Positions 889 to 61,796 of a DNA stretch of 64,000 bases are shown in pieces (position 1 is the stretch's first letter; each line of letters starts with the position of its first letter). The notes under the pieces are model-generated. The model searched no databases. It was not told the origin of the DNA and saw only the letters and a program-made list of their open reading frames with translations. Source of the stretch: Limisphaerales bacterium (GTDB lineage: Bacteria; Verrucomicrobiota; Verrucomicrobiia; Limisphaerales; JAYTXL01); NCBI GenBank assembly GCA_046593035.1, contig JBKJSC010000265.1, forward strand, positions 2,816 to 66,815, written 5' to 3'. Both the position numbers and the translations under genes were made by a program.

Positions 889-3438
889 TTACTGGCGAAA
901 CGCCGAATAATCGGTCTTCCCACCGCTTTCCAGAAACGCCAGCAAATCGAGCAGTTCCTCCGCCGAAAGAATATTCACCAGGCCTTCCGGCATCGGCGAA
1001 ATGGCGGAGACACGCCGCGCTTTGAGGTCCGTTTTGAAAATCTCCGTTCGCTCTGCCGTCAAGGGATTCGTGGCCACGACCAGCTTCCGCGCGTCTTCCG
1101 ACACGATGCGGCCCGCGATGGCAACGCCGTCTTTGGTGATGATATCCGTGTTTTGAAACTGGTCGGGAATCACCTTCGACGGAAGGAGGATCGCTTCCAA
1201 CATATCGCGTCGGCTGAAACGGCTCGCGGCAGTGGTGAGGTCTGGACCGAGAGCGCCGCCTTCGTGGCCGAAGCAATGGCACAAAACACATTGCGCCGCC
1301 GCGAACGCTTCCTGACCTTTTCGGAATGAACGCCCCTTTGAAACCCGCCCCAGCAGCGGCGTCATTTCCTCCATCGTCCATTCCTTCACGAACGCGCGTT
1401 GCGGCGCGACCGGCGGCGGTTCGGCGATTGGCTTCGTCAACACGGGCGCGAGCACGGCGCGCTCGGCCTCCGTCAAAGTGCGGCTCGCGTCGTCACGGGT
1501 GTGGGCCAGGAAGTCGAGGAAGTAATGGCTGCCGCTGTAATTCTTCGCCGCTTCTGGGAACCAATTGAAATAAGCGGATCGCGATTCCGGAGTCCAGCCG
1601 TGCTTGACCAATCGCAACGCAAAGACGTACTGCATCTGCTCCTCCTGCGTGGGCGCGGCGGCAAGCAGCTTCATGGTTTTCTCCACCACGTCTGGCGCTT
1701 GGAGATACACCAGCAACTGGCACAGCTCGCGATTGAGGCGCGCGCTCGACGCCGGGAATTGGCGGCTCAATTTTTCGATTCCCATCGTGCGCAACTCGGC
1801 GCCGGGTTTTCCCTGACGAATGAAACTGAGACTGATGACGCGGAGCTTGTCCAACTTCTGTTCTTCGTTCAGCGGATCGAGCGGAAACTTCGCGAGTGCC
1901 CGGAGCAGATCCTCCTGGCATTCCGGCCCACCGCAACGCGTGAGGGCGAGCAGTGCGGTGATCCCGGCGTAGAAGTTGGTCTCCGCCAGGGCGCGGGCCT
2001 GCCATTGCGACACTGGTTGCGCTTCGAGCGCGATGCGCGCGGCGTAACGAATCCAGCGGTCATCGCTGTGGAGATGGGGCCAGACGAAATCCACGGCGGC
2101 GGGATCACTCTTTCCGTGGAATGACTCCAGTTTGTGGCGCAGCGCGCGGCTTTTTGCGCCGGTCAGTTCCGCCAGCCCGACGACCACCGGGTCACGCACC
2201 TTTGGTAGTTCGTAAGTCACGCGATACAATCCGGACTGCGTGCCGCGGCCGCCGGTGATGAAATACATCGCGCCATCCGCCCCGAATTCCAAGTCCGTCA
2301 CATTCAATGGCCGGCCGGTCACGAACGGTTCCGTAGTCACTTTGTACGTCGCGCCGTTCGGGATGAAATGCGCGGCGTAGATCGTGCCAAACGCCCAGTC
2401 GCACAGGAACAAAGCGCGCTGGTATTTCGACGGAAGCTGACTGCCACTGCCGAATTTCATGCCGGTCGGTGAACTGCGGCCCACGTCGAGATTGCCGCGC
2501 ACGCTGTCGGGATAATACTCCGGCCATTTGCCGGTGCCCTTGTGCCAGCCGTATTCGCCGCCGGACACGAGGTGGTTGATGCGCGTGGGCCGGTACCAAG
2601 GCGAGCCGTCGTCCCAATCCATGTCGCTGTCGAAAGTGAACATTTCACCGTCGCGATTAAAGGCGAGGTCGTAGGCGTTGCGCAAACCGCCGCAAATTAG
2701 TGTCCATTCCTTGCCGTCAGGATCAGTACGCAACACGCAACCGCCCGGCGGCGGGCCGTTGGCCCAAGTGAAATTTTCCGGCCAGAGCTGCGGCGGCAGC
2801 AGTTGGTCTTCCTGGTAATTCTTGTGCGGTGACTGAGCGGAAATGCCCGTCGGCAGTTTCGTCTCGTTGCCGTGAATGAGATAAAGCAGTTTGTCCGGGC
2901 CGAGCACAATCCCGTGCGGGCCGTGTTCACCCGTGGCCTCGGTTCGGAAAGCACCTTCAAACTTTTTAAGCAGCTTCACCTCATCGAATTCTCCACTCCC
3001 CGCGTTGTCACGCAGGCGATACAGGCCGGTGCCGTCCGGTCCCTGGCCGCTGACATACAGGCTGTCGAAGGCGTAGAGCAGCCCCATCGCCGCGCCGACG
3101 GGAGCCTGGATTTTTTCCAGCCGCTCCACCTGTCCAGCGGCGGAAAGTGTGACCCGCAACAAGCCGCCCCGGCTGGGTTTGCCGTCGGCGGTTTGCGTGG
3201 CGATTTTCTCTGGAGAAATGATGAGACGACCTTTGGGATCGACAGTGAGGCAAATCCACGAGCCTTCATCGGGTTGTGCCGAGCGGAGCAACTCAACTTT
3301 GAAGCCTGGTGGCACGCTCAACGCGCTGACGGGAGTGGCTAGGTTCGCGACGGCTTGCGCCCGCAACTGAACTGGCACGAGGGTCAGCAATAAAACAAGC
3401 CAGCCCACTCGCTGCCAGTCGTGGACACACCGCCTCAT
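889..3438 (-). CDS. PVC-type heme-binding dehydrogenase-like protein (beta-propeller N-domain, HEAT-like helical middle, C-terminal cytochrome c CxxCH)
   Basis: 911-aa ORF. The likely start is the internal ATG at 3438 (MRRCVHDWQRVGWLVLLLTLVPVQLRAQA looks like a signal peptide). The C-terminus has CVLCH followed by GPDL, a c-type heme motif. There is a long helical repeat region. Confidence 0.8.
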   Translation of the reverse strand: MRRCVHDWQRVGWLVLLLTLVPVQLRAQAVANLATPVSALSVPPGFKVELLRSAQPDEGSWICLTVDPKGRLIISPEKIATQTADGKPSRGGLLRVTLSAAGQVERLEKIQAPVGAAMGLLYAFDSLYVSGQGPDGTGLYRLRDNAGSGEFDEVKLLKKFEGAFRTEATGEHGPHGIVLGPDKLLYLIHGNETKLPTGISAQSPHKNYQEDQLLPPQLWPENFTWANGPPPGGCVLRTDPDGKEWTLICGGLRNAYDLAFNRDGEMFTFDSDMDWDDGSPWYRPTRINHLVSGGEYGWHKGTGKWPEYYPDSVRGNLDVGRSSPTGMKFGSGSQLPSKYQRALFLCDWAFGTIYAAHFIPNGATYKVTTEPFVTGRPLNVTDLEFGADGAMYFITGGRGTQSGLYRVTYELPKVRDPVVVGLAELTGAKSRALRHKLESFHGKSDPAAVDFVWPHLHSDDRWIRYAARIALEAQPVSQWQARALAETNFYAGITALLALTRCGGPECQEDLLRALAKFPLDPLNEEQKLDKLRVISLSFIRQGKPGAELRTMGIEKLSRQFPASSARLNRELCQLLVYLQAPDVVEKTMKLLAAAPTQEEQMQYVFALRLVKHGWTPESRSAYFNWFPEAAKNYSGSHYFLDFLAHTRDDASRTLTEAERAVLAPVLTKPIAEPPPVAPQRAFVKEWTMEEMTPLLGRVSKGRSFRKGQEAFAAAQCVLCHCFGHEGGALGPDLTTAASRFSRRDMLEAILLPSKVIPDQFQNTDIITKDGVAIAGRIVSEDARKLVVATNPLTAERTEIFKTDLKARRVSAISPMPEGLVNILSAEELLDLLAFLESGGKTDYSAFRQ

Positions 3439-3636
3439 GGCAGGCAGGGTAGGAACAAGTCGGGTCGTTTTCAAGAGTGCGACGTCAAGATAGGAAGCCT
3501 GGCGGGAGAACGGCAAGGTCAAAACAGACGCGCGTGATAAAAGATTACGCTCCACAGCTGTCTCCGCTGTGATCGGCGGAAACAACCCATGGAGCGCAAA
3601 CTCACGAGGGAATAAATCCCTCAAAAACCTGGCGGA

Positions 3637-21545: not shown

Positions 21546-21635
21546 TGGCGGAAGGGGAGGGATTCGAACCCCCGGTGACGCAAGCGCCACGGCGGTTTAG
21601 TAAACCGCTGCTATAGACCACTCAGCCACCCTTCC
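21546..21635 (-). tRNA. Class II (long variable arm) Ser-type tRNA; anticodon reads ACU by eye (expected GCU)
   Basis: Hand-folded cloverleaf on the minus strand: GGAAGGG-TG-GCT-GAGTGGTCTAT-AGC-A-GCGGT-TTACTAA-ACCGC-CGTGGCGCTTGCGTCACC-GGGGG-TTCGAAT-CCCTC-CCCTTCC-G-CCA. It has a 7/5 acceptor/T geometry, an 18-nt variable arm, discriminator G73 and an encoded CCA. Confidence 0.85.
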
Positions 21636-52503: not shown

Positions 52504-53637
52504 TCACTTTTTCGCGGAACCGGCGGACTCCATTTCCTTGAGCAAGGCCGCCACGGCTTCATGCACGTCCGCGCCGGGAACGCCCTTGAAGCGGATCACA
52601 CCTTTGGCGTCGAGAACGTGAAAGGTGGGCCAGGCAAGATTGTTCCATTGCGTTGCGATGGGGCCGGAGGTGTTGCCGCCGTCCCACCAATTGCGCCAGG
52701 TCATCTGTTCGCGCTTCATCGCTGAACGGGCGCGTTCCTTGGGATCGGTGTTCACGCCAACGAGCGCGAACGGTTTGCCTTCAAATTGTCTCACGAGCGA
52801 CCGCTCGTGGGGGTAATTAGCCCGGCACGGTCCTCACCAATCGCCCCAGAAGACGATCGCGGTGACTTTGCCGCGATAGTCGCTCAACTTGAGCTTCTGT
52901 CCCTCCACATCCTCACCCTCCGTCTCCGGCGCGACTTTGCCGACACTCAGGTAACGCAGGTCATACAATTCCCGCTTCGCCATCTCCACCGGGCTGCGGC
53001 GACCGCTTTTGCCGCTGGCGGCCGCGGCGATGAATTTGTCGTAAAACATTTCCGCCTCGGCGCTCATTTTTTCCGGGGCAGTGCTCTTGATTTTCGCAAT
53101 CAACTCCTTGCCGTTGATTAATTCCAAGGCTTCCCGGTCCACGGCTTCCTTGCTCTGCTGCCATTTGACCCAGAGTTGAAACTGCTGGTTGAGCGTGTGG
53201 GCCAGGTGATAAGTCGCTTCGGTTTGCAGTCCGGCGTCGGGATTCTTTTCCGTGATGGCGCGGAGCAATTTTTCCACCGCGACTGTGGGCGGCAAATCCG
53301 CCAACGGGCGAAAGATCACCCCAAGCTTCGGACTCTGGGCGTGATCGCGTTGCAACAAGTTCAAAGCTTGTTCCACCAGATCGGAGCCGTCGGAATCATT
53401 CGTCACGACCCAGAGCAATGCGTCCGCGCCAGCGGGGTCTTTGGGGTGGCTGCGCGCCATTTCCAGAATACGCCCGGCGTGGGCCTCGAACTTCGCTGAA
53501 TTCGGCGCGGCCTGTATTTCCTGGAGCAAGGCTTGCAAATTCGCCGCCGACTCCGCCGCACGCGGCGAGGGCGCGAAGGCCAGCAGCGTCAGGAGGAGCA
53601 AGAGAGCTAAAGGTTGGTTTGAAAAACGGTGCGGCAT
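52504..53637 (-). CDS. TlpA/ResA-like exported thiol:disulfide oxidoreductase, predicted selenoprotein (paralogue A; TGA 52834-52836 read as Sec in W-U-G-P-C)
   Basis: ORF 52834..53637 ends ...KVTAIVFWGDW-TGA. The same frame continues GPCRANYPHERSLVRQFEGKPFALVGVNTD... to the stop at 52504. The total of 1134 nt is a multiple of 3. Signal peptide MPHRFSNQPLALLLLLTLLAFAPSPRA, then a helical N-domain and a thioredoxin-fold C-domain. Confidence 0.75.
52792..52809 (-). promoter_or_regulatory. Candidate SECIS hairpin, paralogue A
   Basis: The mRNA sequence CACGAGC-GGUC-GCUCGUG is a 7-bp perfect stem with a tetraloop. It starts 24 nt after the UGA and is identical in all three paralogues. Confidence 0.6.
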
Positions 53638-53677
53638 AGCGATGCGTAATTACTGGCGGTTCATTCCAACAAAGCAA

Positions 53678-54766
53678 TCATTTCTTCTCAGCCCCTGCTT
53701 TCTCCATTTCCTTTAGCAGCGCGTCCACCGCACGATCCATTTCCTCGCCGCGAACGTTCTTGTAGCGGATCACGCCTTTGGCATCGAGGACGTAGATCGT
53801 CGGCCAGCCGTGGACATCATACTTGGTCGCGATGGGACCGCCGGTGGTTCCGCCGTCCCAGAAGGAGCGCCAGGTGATGTTCTCACGTTTCAAAGCGGCC
53901 TCGACTTTGTCCTTGGGATCGCTGTTGACGCCGAGGAGCGCGAAGGGTTTGTTTTCGAGCCGTTTCACGAGCGACCGCTCGTGAGGGTACATGGCCCGGC
54001 ACGGGGGTCACCAGTCGCCCCAGAAATCAATCGCCACCACCTTGCCGCGATAATCACTCAACTTGAAAGCCTTTCCCTGGATGTCCACGCCCGCAATGTC
54101 CGGTGCCACCTTGCCGATGCCAAAAACGCGGTCTTGCTCCAGTTCCTTTTTGGCGAATTCGCCCATCGTGCCCCGGGAGTATTTGAGGTCGCCGAATTTT
54201 TCGATGAGGAGGTTGAGATATTTTTCAGCTTCCACCGGCGCGCTGCTCTTGAGCAATTGCGCCAGGCTCAGGCAGGCCTGGCCCTGCATCTCGCGCTGCG
54301 GATTCTTTTCCAAAACTGCCTTGAGCAATCGCTCCGCCGCCGGACCGCGCGAGTAGCCTGCGCGCTGGCAAACGCCCGCCAGTTTGTCGCTGTTGGCATG
54401 ATCTTTCGCGAGCGTGTCCAGCGCCTTGGCGGCTTCGGGCGATTGATAGCCAAAGGTGGCCACCCAGATGAGCGCGTCCAGCGCCGCCGGGTCTTTGGGG
54501 GTTTTCCCGGCGAGTTCCATGAAGCGCCCGGCCAATTTCTCCGGTCGCGGTCGCTGCTCGTCCGTCACCTTTTTTTTCTCCTCGGTCGTCTTGGCTTCGC
54601 GCAAGGCTTTGGAATATTCCTGCGACGCGGTGGTGTACTCTTTCACCAGTGCGCGGTATTGATCTGCTGGCGACAGATCGTCCGCTGCCCGAAGCGAAGT
54701 GCTCGCGCAGAGCAGGAGCAGCGGCAACGTTCGCGCCGCGAGCCGAAGTGAGGGAAGTGTTTTCAT
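53678..54766 (-). CDS. TlpA/ResA-like exported thiol:disulfide oxidoreductase, predicted selenoprotein (paralogue B; TGA 54008-54010 read as Sec in W-U-P-P-C)
   Basis: ORF 54008..54766 ends ...KVVAIDFWGDW-TGA. The frame continues PPCRAMYPHERSLVKRLENKPFALLGVNSD.... The total is 1089 nt in frame. Signal peptide MKTLPSLRLAARTLPLLLLCASTSLRA. Confidence 0.75.
53966..53983 (-). promoter_or_regulatory. Candidate SECIS hairpin, paralogue B
   Basis: The same CACGAGCGGUCGCUCGUG hairpin, 24 nt after the UGA. Confidence 0.6.
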
Positions 54767-54799
54767 AGTGTTGTAAGTCTGGCGAGGTTTGGCGCAAAT

Positions 54800-55924
54800 C
54801 TATTTCTTGGCCGTGCTGCCTGCTTCCGCTTCCTTGAGCAGCGCGTCCACGGAATGATCCATCGTGTCATCGCCGGGCGAACCGACCCATTTGTGGCGGA
54901 TCACTCCTTTGTGGTCGATCACATAGAGCGTCGGCCACCCACGGGTGTTCCACTTGCTGGCAATCGGTCCGCTGGTGTTGCCGCCGTCCCACCAGGAACG
55001 CCAGGTCATGTTTTCCTTTTTTAGAACTTCCTTCAGCTTCTCCTTGGGGTCGCTGTTGACGCCGAGGATCACAAAGGGTTTGCCCGCCAGCCGTTTCACG
55101 AGCGACCGCTCGTGGGGATACATCGCCTTGCACGGCCCTCACCAATCGCCCCAGAAGTCGATCAACACCACCTTGCCACGATACTCGCTCAACTTGAACG
55201 CCTTTCCCTCCACGTCCTGCCCTTCAATCTCCGGTGCCGGCTTGCCGACACCGAGGGTGCGAATCTCGAACAATGCCGCCTTGGCCTGGTTCACCAACGG
55301 ACTGGGATTCCCTTGAACGCGGCCAAACTTGTTGATGACTTGCTCGAAATACTCCTCCGCTTGCTTGTCCTTGCCGGGCTGGCCTTGGAGAATTTTCGCC
55401 AGGCTGAACGTGGCCTGGCCCTGCACATCCTGATGCGGGTTCTGGGCGATGATGTCTCGCAACTGTTTCTCGGTCTGCGGCGATGGCGAGTAAGCTAGGC
55501 TCTGGCAAAGCAGACCCAACTTCTCGCTCTGGAGGTGGTCTTTCATCAGAATGCCCATCGCCTTCTCGACTTCTTCTCCGAGCCGGACGCTGGTAACCAA
55601 CCAGATGAGGGCGTCGACCGCGGCGGGGTCTTGGGGATTCTTTTGCGCCAGTTCCAGGAAACGTCCGGCGTATTTCTGCGGCTGCGGGTACGTCGCCGCG
55701 ATTTTTCTGCGCTCCTCATCCGTCTTGACCGTTTGGTACGCTTTGAAAAAATCCTCCTGCGCTTTTTGAAATTCCTGCGTCAACTCCTGATACTGCGCCG
55801 ACGGCGACAGTGCGGCGACCGGTTTCTCCACTGCGCTGGCAGCGGAGGGGAACGCAAGGACGAGCGAGAGTGAAAGCAGCGCCAGCACGGTGCCGGTGAG
55901 GCGCGGGGAAATGGGAGTTCTCAT
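54800..55924 (-). CDS. TlpA/ResA-like exported thiol:disulfide oxidoreductase, predicted selenoprotein (paralogue C; TGA 55139-55141 read as Sec in W-U-G-P-C)
   Basis: ORF 55139..56125 ends ...KVVLIDFWGDW-TGA. The frame continues GPCKAMYPHERSLVKRLAGKPFVILGVNSD.... Start taken at ATG 55924 (MRTPISPRLTGTVLALLSLSLVLAFPSAASA). The total is 1125 nt in frame. Confidence 0.75.
55097..55114 (-). promoter_or_regulatory. Candidate SECIS hairpin, paralogue C
   Basis: The same CACGAGCGGUCGCUCGUG hairpin, 24 nt after the UGA. Confidence 0.6.
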
Positions 55925-59617: not shown

Positions 59618-60556
59618 TCATTTGGCCGTCGCGGCCTTGACCATCTCGGCCACGAAATCGTTCACCTTCCATTCGTTACCGACGAAGACCTGCTGCACCC
59701 GGCCCTGCGCATCCACCACGACGGTGCGGAGCTTGTGGTTGAAATTAAACGACGAGCCGGCTTCGCGGAAAAATTCCAGACCGAATTGCTCGGTGATCGC
59801 GTCGATCTCAATGAGCGCACCCGTGACGAAATTCCATTTCTCCGGGTCGTATTGATAGCGCCGCGCGTATGCCTTCAACGTCGCGGGTGTGTCATATTCC
59901 GGATCAAAGGAGATGGAAAGCAGCCGCCAGTTTTTCGGTCCGTCAGGCCGGGCGCTCAATTGTTTGTAGGCCGCCGCAAAGTTTTCCGTCATGCGCGGAC
60001 AGAAAGTCGGAAACGGACAGCGCGTAAAAATAAAAGTGAAACCCACCGCCTGACCCTTGAACTCCTGCAGGCTGACGGCCTGCCCCAGTTCGTTGGTGAA
60101 CGGGTAATTCGGCATCAGGTCGCCCACTTTCAATGGCTCCACTTCGCGGACACGGCGGAAAGTGGTCTGCGGTTTCGCGGCAGCGGGGGCGGCCTTGCCA
60201 ACCTTGGTCACGCGGTCGATCCAGGCATCGTCTTTCGTCACCAACATGCGGAAAAATATAGAATCGCCCGGTTGCAAGCCCGCCAATTCCTTCGGTTCCT
60301 TGACCTCCAGAGGCATGGTCATCGCCTCCATGTAATTTGGAATGGCCTCGTGCTTGACCACCGCCGTCCTGCCATCCGGTAACAATTCTTCCACCACGCC
60401 GCGGACGAAGAATGTCTGCAAATTTGTTGCTACTTGGTTCGTGGCGATGGCCGGCACGCGCACGGGCGCGGTCGTCTGCGAATTCTCGCGACAGGAAATA
60501 GCCGCACCGGCCAGCAGCAGCGCGGCCACCCAGGGAAATAGTTTTGCACGCAACAT
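59618..60556 (-). CDS. SCO1/SenC-family copper chaperone fused to an N-terminal CusF-like Met-rich copper-binding domain
   Basis: Signal/lipoprotein-like N-terminus (LLAGAAISC). The CusF-like segment is VVKHEAIPNYMEAMTMPLEV. The SCO thioredoxin fold is FIFTRCPFPTFCPRM...LLSISFDPEYDTP. Start at ATG 60556. Confidence 0.75.
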   Translation of the reverse strand: MLRAKLFPWVAALLLAGAAISCRENSQTTAPVRVPAIATNQVATNLQTFFVRGVVEELLPDGRTAVVKHEAIPNYMEAMTMPLEVKEPKELAGLQPGDSIFFRMLVTKDDAWIDRVTKVGKAAPAAAKPQTTFRRVREVEPLKVGDLMPNYPFTNELGQAVSLQEFKGQAVGFTFIFTRCPFPTFCPRMTENFAAAYKQLSARPDGPKNWRLLSISFDPEYDTPATLKAYARRYQYDPEKWNFVTGALIEIDAITEQFGLEFFREAGSSFNFNHKLRTVVVDAQGRVQQVFVGNEWKVNDFVAEMVKAATAK

Positions 60557-60665
60557 AAGAACCGATGCAGTTTCACTGTTTGGACTACGCTTTGGCAAGA
60601 CTGCACAAACACAAACCGGGACGGCAATTCTTTGACAGCCTGCGGCCAAACCGTATCCTTGCGCC

Positions 60666-61796
60666 ATGCGCGTTGTGAAAGTCCCCCTGGGCGGGCGGAG
60701 CTATCGTATCCTCATCGGCGGCGGCTTACTGGCGTGTCTCGGCACCGAGTGCGCGCGGCTGAAACTGGGCTGGCGTTGCGCTGTGATTTCCGACCGCCAC
60801 GTCGCGCCCCGCTATGGCAAGTCGGTGATGCAATCGCTCCGGGCCGCCGGCTTCGAACCGGTGGCGATCACCGTGCCCGCCGGTGAAACAGCCAAGAGTC
60901 TGGCGACGGTTGCGGCGTGCTACGATCAATTGGCCGCGCACCATATGGAACGCCAGTCGTTCATCATCGCGCTGGGCGGCGGCGTGGTGGGCGATCTCGC
61001 GGGGTTCGTCGCCGCGACTTATCTGCGCGGCATCCCGTTCGTGCAAGTGCCCACGACCTTGCTGGCTCAGGTGGACAGCTCGGTCGGCGGCAAAGTCGGC
61101 GTCAATTTGCGGGCCGGCAAAAACCTCGTCGGCGCATTTTACCAACCACGGCTCGTGCTCTGCGATCTCGACACCTTGGGCACTCTGCCGGTGCGGGAAC
61201 TGCGCGCCGGACTGGCCGAGGTTATCAAATACGGCATCATTTACGACGTGAAACTTTTTGCGCGTCTCGAACGCGATCTCCCCCGGTTGCTCGCCCGCGA
61301 GCCGAAGACCCTCGCCGCCGTCATCGCCCGCTGCTGCGAAATCAAAGCCGAGGTGGTGGGCCAGGACGAAACCGAGGGCGGCCTGCGCGCGATTTTGAAT
61401 TTCGGCCACACCATCGGCCACGCGATCGAGAATATTTCCGGCTATGGAAAATATCTGCACGGCGAGGCCATTTCCATTGGTCAGGTCGCGGCGGCAAAAC
61501 TTTCCACGGAGTTGCTGGGCCTGCACGGCGCGGAACTGGAGCGCATCACGAACTTGTTCGCGCAAGCAGGATTGCCCACGCAAATCAAACTCTCCGCCGC
61601 GCAACGCAGACGAATTCTCGCCGCGATGAAGCTCGACAAAAAAGTCAGCCACGGCGAAGTCAAATTCGTCCTCGCCGAAAAGATCGGAAAAGTCCGTTGG
61701 GGCCAAAGCGTGCCGCCGGCACTCATCGCCCAGGCTCTCCACGCCGAACTTTCGCCTGCAACCAACTGCTCCACGCCAAGGGCATCGATGCCGTGA
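60666..61796 (+). CDS. aroB: 3-dehydroquinate synthase
   Basis: GGGVVGDLAGFVAATYLRGIPFVQVPTTLLAQVDSSVGGKVGVN, NFGHTIGHAIE and HGEAISIG. Confidence 0.9.
   Translation: MRVVKVPLGGRSYRILIGGGLLACLGTECARLKLGWRCAVISDRHVAPRYGKSVMQSLRAAGFEPVAITVPAGETAKSLATVAACYDQLAAHHMERQSFIIALGGGVVGDLAGFVAATYLRGIPFVQVPTTLLAQVDSSVGGKVGVNLRAGKNLVGAFYQPRLVLCDLDTLGTLPVRELRAGLAEVIKYGIIYDVKLFARLERDLPRLLAREPKTLAAVIARCCEIKAEVVGQDETEGGLRAILNFGHTIGHAIENISGYGKYLHGEAISIGQVAAAKLSTELLGLHGAELERITNLFAQAGLPTQIKLSAAQRRRILAAMKLDKKVSHGEVKFVLAEKIGKVRWGQSVPPALIAQALHAELSPATNCSTPRASMP

Follow-up and report, generated by a model that had tools for sequence, protein, structure and literature searches.

An in-frame UGA and a downstream hairpin, a probable selenocysteine insertion element, in three tandem TlpA-like genes of a Limisphaerales bacterium

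Genes A, B, and C and the hairpin block

The 64,000-nucleotide stretch of Limisphaerales bacterium DNA analysed here (the window) contains three tandem genes, A, B, and C, on its minus strand (Table 1). The genes are separated by gaps of 33–40 nt, with rsmB located upstream and a LarA-like gene downstream of the cluster. Each gene contains exactly one in-frame TGA codon, after which the frame remains open for another 110–113 codons, and each TGA is followed by the same hairpin-forming block. In the codon alignment of the three genes, protein conservation carries on beyond the TGA while synonymous sites vary, and therefore the frame after the UGA is translated. Reassignment of UGA to a sense codon in the source organism was ruled out, because genes A and B themselves terminate at an ordinary TGA. 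The evidence presented below makes it very probable that the three genes encode exported thiol:disulfide oxidoreductases similar to TlpA and ResA, in which UGA specifies selenocysteine (Sec) in place of the first active-site cysteine, and that the block is a bacterial selenocysteine insertion sequence (SECIS).

The TGA occupies the position of the first cysteine of the W-C-x-x-C active site in a protein alignment with 98 homologues that have cysteine at this position (Cys homologues). All three genes share the motif W-U-x-P-C, in which UxxC takes the place of CxxC. Their products can be divided into a hydrophobic signal-like N-terminus, a helical N-domain, and a C-domain with a thioredoxin fold. 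The signal-like N-termini, judged by eye, suggest export to the periplasm. Residues 217–342 of gene B exceed the cut-offs of the Pfam families AhpC-TSA (77 bits) and Redoxin (64.6 bits) and also match Thioredoxin_8; residues 215–356 match chains of ResA, TlpA, and DsbE from the PDB with E values from 1e-16 to 1e-12. In the NCBIfam search, no equivalog scored above its cut-off. The N-terminal fragment of gene B (protein P0001) was modeled with a predicted local distance difference test score (pLDDT) of 89.8. Its N-domain of approximately 200 residues is predicted to form an all-alpha helical repeat (pLDDT about 97). Pfam, PDB-sequence, and Foldseek searches identified no significant relative of this domain (best Foldseek hit against the PDB with E = 0.05 and TM ≤0.39), and in the model it can be described at most as a helical repeat, TPR-like.

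The 19-nt block CACGAGCGGTCGCTCGTGA is present in three minus-strand copies with 0 mismatches, at positions 52791–52809, 53965–53983, and 55096–55114, whereas 0.04 matches are expected by chance, as estimated from dinucleotide shuffles. A first-pass annotation of the window, made from the sequence alone, had described this identical block after all three TGAs, as well as a 7-bp stem, located 24 nt after the UGA and closed by a GGUC tetraloop. Both descriptions are borne out: the 7-bp stem and the GGUC loop are found in the minimum free energy (MFE) and centroid folds of all three 71-nt contexts, with the stem starting 24 nt and the loop 31 nt past the UGA in each gene. The three post-TGA segments quoted in that annotation contain the correct 24-nt spacers, and the differences between neighbouring synonymous codons listed there (CCC/CCT, TAC/TAT, GCT/GCC/GCG) are real. 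Its coordinates need a small correction, since position 52792 is indeed the last base of the 18-nt hairpin, but the 19-nt block includes a trailing A at 52791 on the minus strand. Outside the block, the three copies agree at 42% of the conserved degenerate codons, compared to six of six codons within it (P about 0.006 for a fixed site; P = 0.12 in a longest-run permutation). The three paralogues alone thus provide modest evidence for selection on the RNA.

Table 1. Positions of the genes, codons, and hairpins of the A–B–C cluster, of other features of the window, and of loci in related genomes. Positions refer to the window, except for L019, L026, and L058, where they refer to the respective locus.
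Feature	Position	Strand	Basis or description
Gene A, exported TlpA-like selenoprotein (predicted)	52504..53637	-	377 codons; motif FWGDW-U-GPC; translation with a single internal TGA
Candidate Sec codon TGA of gene A	52834..52836	-	aligned with first Cys of CxxC in homologues
SECIS hairpin of gene A (predicted), CACGAGC-GGUC-GCUCGUG	52792..52809	-	exact block, fold, family conservation
Gene B, paralogue of A and C	53678..54766	-	362 codons; motif FWGDW-U-PPC; translation
Candidate Sec codon TGA of gene B	54008..54010	-	aligned with first Cys of CxxC in homologues
SECIS hairpin of gene B (predicted)	53966..53983	-	exact block, fold, family conservation
N-domain of gene B (predicted helical repeat)	about 54120..54680	-	model; residues 30–215
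Gene C, paralogue of A and B	54800..55924	-	374 codons; motif FWGDW-U-GPC; translation from ATG at 55924
Candidate Sec codon TGA of gene C	55139..55141	-	aligned with first Cys of CxxC in homologues
SECIS hairpin of gene C (predicted)	55097..55114	-	exact block, fold, family conservation
PVC-type heme-binding CxxCH protein gene	889..3624	-	
dnaA	12834..14219	+	
tRNA-Ser(ACU)	21546..21635	-	
SCO1/SenC–CusF-like fusion gene	59618..60667	-	
tRNA-Sec/SelD-motif locus, L019	224..1498		
tRNA-Sec/SelD-motif locus, L026	1594..1690		
tRNA-Sec/SelD-motif locus, L058	1429..1525		

Purifying selection on the hairpin in TGA-containing homologues

Relatives of the three genes were collected from one genome per species with degenerate peptide patterns, and the search was hence blind to codon choice. 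The scan identified at least 584 relatives. The best 80 loci, which belong to metagenome-assembled genomes (MAGs) of Verrucomicrobiota and Planctomycetota, all have a TGA at the same position, and the best of them comes from a Verrucomicrobiota MAG. The analysis of codons was carried out on 90 distinct TGA-containing sequences from the two phyla, including the window genes, which are referred to as Sec forms.

Five consecutive codons of the hairpin are nearly invariant in the Sec forms. Histidine at codon 9 after the TGA is encoded by CAC in 89 sequences and by CAT in one; Glu10, Arg11, and Ser12 are encoded by GAG, CGG, and TCG in all 90; and Leu13 is encoded by CTC in 89 sequences and by CTT in one. 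The following Val14 is GTG in 52, GTT in 14, GTA in 13, and GTC in 9 sequences. The codon entropy is 0–0.09 bits at the five hairpin codons compared to 1–2.4 bits at the flanking four- and six-fold degenerate codons; neighbouring codons for Pro, Ala, Arg, Leu, and Gly reach 1.5–2.4 bits. All six arginine codons are used at codon 16, and five or six synonymous codons are in use for Arg, Leu, and Ser elsewhere in the same domains. The frequencies of the conserved codons elsewhere in the same sequences are 41% for GAG, 23% for CGG, 17% for TCG, and 40% for CTC. Given the family usage elsewhere, the five codons should occur together in about 0.5% of the sequences, whereas this exact combination is observed in 88 of the 90.

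The third-position pattern in the block is explained by the pairing or loop role of each base in the hairpin. C3 and C15 pair with G, and the changes there are exclusively C to U, as in the CAT and CTT codons; these are the sole two substitutions in the block, both synonymous, and they keep the pairing as G-U wobbles. G6 and G12, which pair with C, never change, and neither does G9, the second base of the loop. G18 closes a dispensable seventh pair and is free to vary. Throughout the family, the third base of the valine codon and the base after it vary freely, and the conserved stem has 6 bp (5 bp in two sequences). The 19-nt block and 7-bp stem of the first-pass annotation therefore hold for the window, but the family-wide constraint is limited to 17 nt (CACGAGCGGTCGCTCGT) and a 6-bp stem. 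The GGUC loop, the 24-nt spacing from the UGA to the stem, and the 31-nt distance to the loop are invariant in all Sec forms. The peptide HERSL is likewise encoded by every Sec form, compared to 26 of the 98 Cys homologues. RNAalifold identified the 6-bp stem with its loop as the sole well-conserved structure; it also drew a marginal 2-bp helix, beyond which it revealed neither a lower stem nor further conserved structure between the UGA and the hairpin. The near-zero entropy at the hairpin codons, set among scrambled flanks, bears out the earlier proposal that selection acts on the RNA and not on the protein alone.

Two features close to the UGA lie outside the hairpin. The Arg codon at position +4 after the TGA (window positions 52822–52824 and 53996–53998) is CGG in 72 of 89 Sec forms, compared to 23% elsewhere in the same domains, and no conserved pairing partner was found for it; the corresponding codon of gene C is AAG (Lys). 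The base directly after the UGA (positions 52833, 54007, and 55138) is always G or C in the family, as part of Gly GGN or Pro CCN. In E. coli, UGA-C and UGA-G are weak termination contexts for release factor 2 (RF2), which would favour Sec insertion.

The effect of losing the UGA was examined in 13 distinct Cys homologues with available DNA, all of which encode HERSLV. Two of the loci were obtained from the metagenome pattern scan, and the remaining sequences by looking up proteins singly. Synonymous changes break the stem or the loop of the hairpin in 7 of the 13 Cys forms but in none of the 90 Sec forms (Fisher P about 9e-8). Relative to the Sec-form block, the changes are TTG in L081; CGC and CTA in L085; GAA and CGT in L086; TCT and CTG in L089; CTG in L090/L091; CGA and CTG in L092; and CGT, TCC, and CTG in L093. 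They include replacement of the loop G (CGG to CGC, CGT, or CGA) and of CTC by CTG, TTG, or CTA. The stem and loop are thus under nucleotide-level purifying selection that is specific to the TGA forms.

In a neighbour-joining tree of the domain, which has very short internal branches and was calculated without bootstrap, the Sec forms constitute one clade nested in a radiation of Cys forms. The Sec clade contains every Cys form that has kept the hairpin intact, as well as three of the decayed ones, whereas the other four sequenced Cys forms are outside it, and the hairpin is absent in all four. This topology is suggestive of a single replacement of Cys by Sec and several later returns to Cys, in which remnants of the SECIS stayed behind, with the polarity resting on the same tree. 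The distant Cys form L090 reads CAC GAG CGG TCG CTG, which is one synonymous step from the hairpin, and the SECIS could therefore have arisen easily. L083, L084, L085, L088, and L094 form one young clade with a synonymous codon identity of 0.77–0.90, in which L085 has already lost two positions, as neutral drift would predict. The decay of a SECIS after Sec-to-Cys reversion would thereby be visible in a thiol oxidoreductase family.

SECIS-like remnants have been documented behind Cys codons that had replaced Sec codons (Zhang et al. 2006, PMC1794560, Fig. 4), and the Cys homologues inside the Sec clade likewise have an intact or partly decayed hairpin. Such conversions are described as rare and as affecting mainly FdhA and SelD (review PMC13188914), whereas the weakly resolved tree suggests several of them in the thiol oxidoreductase family studied here. 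Four full-length homologues (P0012, P0013, P0016, and P0118) do not contain any CxxC (e.g. FWNDLYVHGSAKY) and are presumably redox-inactive.

Comparison with known SECIS elements and alternative explanations

The fit of the hairpin to the bacterial SECIS model was judged against the constraints of the bSECISearch consensus (Zhang and Gladyshev 2005), as quoted in PMC13188914. The model comprises a loop of 3–9 nt, an upper stem of 4–16 bp, a G as the first or second base of the loop with G or U directly after it, a UGA-to-loop distance of 16–37 nt, and an energy of at most -7.5 kcal/mol. The TlpA-like hairpin agrees with every one of these constraints. It lies inside the coding sequence just downstream of an in-frame UGA aligned with Cys, and has a 4-nt loop, a stem of 7 bp in the window and 6 bp in the family, the G-then-G/U arrangement in its GGUC loop in all 90 Sec forms, a UGA-to-loop distance of 31 nt, and an energy of -10.5 kcal/mol in the 7-bp form and -7.9 kcal/mol in the 6-bp form. 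The hairpin differs from the model in the absence of a conserved lower stem. Bacterial SECIS are usually described as poorly conserved in sequence, whereas the core of the TlpA-like hairpin is near-invariant across two phyla.

The GGUC tetraloop is identical to the apical loop of the E. coli fdhF SECIS. The fdhF segment, present under the fdhF annotation in 5,419 E. coli genomes, forms an apical GGUC loop when folded, which confirms the statement on this loop in the first-pass annotation. The G and U of the fdhF loop (G23 and U24) are contacted by SelB (PMC8659212). The fdhF minihelix is positioned 11 nt from the UGA, compared to 24–25 nt for the stem of the TlpA-like hairpin. TlpA-like UxxC selenoproteins have been known as a family class since 2005 (PMC1088965). 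Compared by description rather than by accession, genes A, B, and C have in common with that class the thioredoxin-fold domain, the UxxC motif, and many Cys homologues, and differ from it by the additional helical N-domain.

Three related Verrucomicrobiota MAGs (L019, L026, and L058) carry a gene for tRNA-Sec(UCA) 0.5–1.6 kb from a homologous TlpA-like gene. In L019, the next gene is selD, which scored 344.8 bits against a cut-off of 125; L019 is the one locus in which selD was confirmed. All three loci also contain a gene with the SelD active-site motif that has an in-frame UGA of its own (KLTSLSSCAG-U-ASKL). Behind this UGA follows a hairpin with a 24-nt spacer, a stem of 8–9 bp, and a GU-containing loop at a distance of about 32 nt. 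The loop reads GGUCU in L019; in L026 and L058 it is AGUCU or AGUUU, and an extra A-U pair there leaves GUC or GUU. The SelD-motif hairpins have the same architecture as the TlpA-like hairpin, with the loop G-U about 33–35 nt after the UGA. They have a different stem sequence with pair-preserving substitutions between the genomes, whereas the TlpA-like stem is frozen. The same geometry in an accepted selenoprotein gene type of the same lineage, with a different stem, is an argument for regarding a 31-nt spacing as the usual one for the SelB of these bacteria. The SelB of these Verrucomicrobiota would accordingly use a loop about 31–32 nt from the UGA, compared to 18 nt in E. coli. Planctomycetes with full sets of Sec genes have been published (PMC4807772).

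In the proposed mechanism, the mRNA codons for His-Glu-Arg-Ser-Leu(-Val) would fold into a stem of 6–7 bp, (C)ACGAGC/GCUCGU(G), capped by GGUC. When the ribosome reaches the UGA, SelB with GTP and Sec-tRNA(Sec) would bind the loop G-U and the upper stem, and would compete with RF2 to place the Sec-tRNA(Sec) in the A site, after which translation would proceed through the remaining thioredoxin fold. We infer SelB binding and Sec insertion from the sequences. The codons and the HERSL peptide are fixed in every Sec form because the SECIS is located inside the coding sequence, and the family thus offers a clear example of an RNA signal that freezes both codons and a five-residue peptide inside an enzyme. 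The SECIS assignment made in the first-pass annotation is supported by the TGA-linked selection on the RNA, the decay in Cys forms, the fit to the model, the fdhF-like loop, and the folding in context, in which the hairpin is favoured both in the window folds and by RNAalifold.

Several observations weigh against this assignment. The structure and covariance analysis suggested in the first-pass annotation recovered the hairpin, but the invariant stem has no compensatory covariation, because a substitution at any of its second codon positions would alter the peptide; structural support is provided by the invariance of synonymous sites and the two wobble changes. The MFE single-sequence fold does not contain the hairpin in 22–28 of the 90 homologues. 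Rfam searches at gathering and permissive thresholds returned no match to a SECIS family. Relative to fdhF, in which the loop starts 18 nt past the UGA and the 5′ arm of the stem has a bulged U, the TlpA-like loop is 13 nt farther and the stem is perfect, without a bulge. No selA, selB, selC, or selD was identified among the 40 longest open reading frames of the window (NCBIfam on all, Pfam on 10) or in the tRNA scan, and the Sec competence of the source genome is thus deduced from its relatives. The exact block is kept in 6 of the 13 Cys forms (L082, L083, L084, L087, L088, and L094), and L082 and L087 have no close Sec relative in the sample, their synonymous codon identity to the nearest Sec form being 0.58–0.64, near saturation.

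The first-pass annotation had taken retention of the block by Cys orthologues as an argument for recent gene conversion and against RNA selection, and had proposed checking whether such orthologues lose the hairpin. The outcome is divided, with loss in seven forms and retention in six, but the argument is too strict, since the keepers lie in the Sec clade and remnant SECIS are documented. In the weakly resolved tree, the six keepers look like recent Sec-to-Cys revertants, which is suggestive. Unsampled Sec relatives are the likely reason for the intact hairpin in L082 and L087. Sense codons can be recoded as Sec by variant tRNA-Sec, but it is quite improbable that the hairpin of these two forms is still selected, either because their Cys codon (UGC/UGU) is partly decoded as Sec or because of a second, Sec-independent role.

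The same six Cys forms, and in particular L082 and L087 with their near-saturated divergence from all sampled Sec forms, could be taken to indicate an RNA element that is independent of Sec, such as a translational pause or an mRNA-stability hairpin that is present in Sec and Cys forms and follows the UGA by coincidence. This is very unlikely given that more than half of the same-peptide Cys forms have lost the hairpin and no Sec form has, that it is absent from all sequenced Cys forms outside the Sec clade, and that its loop and spacing fit both the bacterial SECIS model and the SelD-motif SECIS of the same lineage. A function at the level of DNA, such as the binding of a dimeric protein at an operator or recombination site, is highly improbable. 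CACGAGCGGTCGCTCGTG is an imperfect inverted repeat and has plus-strand matches with 2–3 mismatches, but the block is always in coding sequence at a fixed distance from the UGA, is lost upon the change of UGA to a Cys codon, and has an asymmetric GGTC loop as conserved as the arms. Moreover, the two changes that are tolerated both replace C by T on the sense strand; such a change keeps the pairing in RNA as G-U but would break a DNA palindrome.

It is scarcely conceivable that the three copies are identical owing to recent duplication or gene conversion among tandem paralogues without selection on the RNA. The three-copy statistics are modest and tandem paralogues are common in the TlpA-like family, but genes A, B, and C share just 70–75% of their nucleotides and 54–61% of their third positions, also directly beside the block. 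The same 17 nt occur in the 90 sequences from both phyla, which conversion within the window cannot explain, and conversion through recent transfers is excluded by the saturated synonymous sites among the homologues. There is as little to recommend the explanation that the block is kept solely by a need for the HERSLV peptide combined with G+C-rich codon bias, without any RNA function. HERSLV is also present in 25 of the 98 Cys homologues, and distant L090 shares four of the five codons (CAC GAG CGG TCG); against this stand the excess of the exact codon combination over its expected frequency and the drift of Cys forms at precisely the hairpin codon positions. We therefore regard the element as a typical bacterial SECIS in the known TlpA-like UxxC class, for which the current understanding stands; its notable properties are that it is invariant in two phyla, constrains the peptide, and visibly decays in Cys revertants.

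Truncated annotations and gene neighbourhood

Genes A, B, and C and hundreds of their homologues from the Planctomycetota–Verrucomicrobiota–Chlamydiota (PVC) group are split or truncated at the UGA by gene callers, and the protein database contains stubs of 243–273 residues ending in FWGDW for the TlpA-like family. The invariant motif UGA-N24-CACGAGCGGUCGCUCGU could be used to rescue the truncated annotations. An analysis of planctomycetes (PMC4807772, Table S9) listed two split selenoprotein candidates annotated as "thiol-disulfide isomerase-like thioredoxin", for which bSECISearch found no SECIS; these candidates may belong to the TlpA-like family described here.

In the Pirellulaceae MAG L042, the reading frame of the family gene extends through another thioredoxin domain, which carries a second in-frame TGA (FYADW-U-DPCK; positions 2627 and 3026 of the locus); the product is a candidate two-selenocysteine fusion protein. 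Neither a copy of the TlpA-like hairpin nor a convincing SECIS was found for the second UGA.

The gene for a SCO1/SenC domain fused to a CusF-like copper-binding domain is located 4 kb from the A–B–C cluster. TlpA reduces Sco proteins in Bradyrhizobium, and the SCO1/SenC–CusF gene may be functionally linked to the TlpA-like genes. The presence of dnaA indicates that the region may be near the chromosomal origin. The window also contains a gene annotated as a "PVC-type heme-binding CxxCH protein" (Table 1), which supports placing its source in the PVC superphylum. The sole tRNA gene of the window encodes a class-II tRNA with the anticodon loop TTACTAA. The resulting anticodon, ACU, assigns it to the serine codon AGU, and its A at position 34 is an unusual base for a tRNA-Ser in bacteria.

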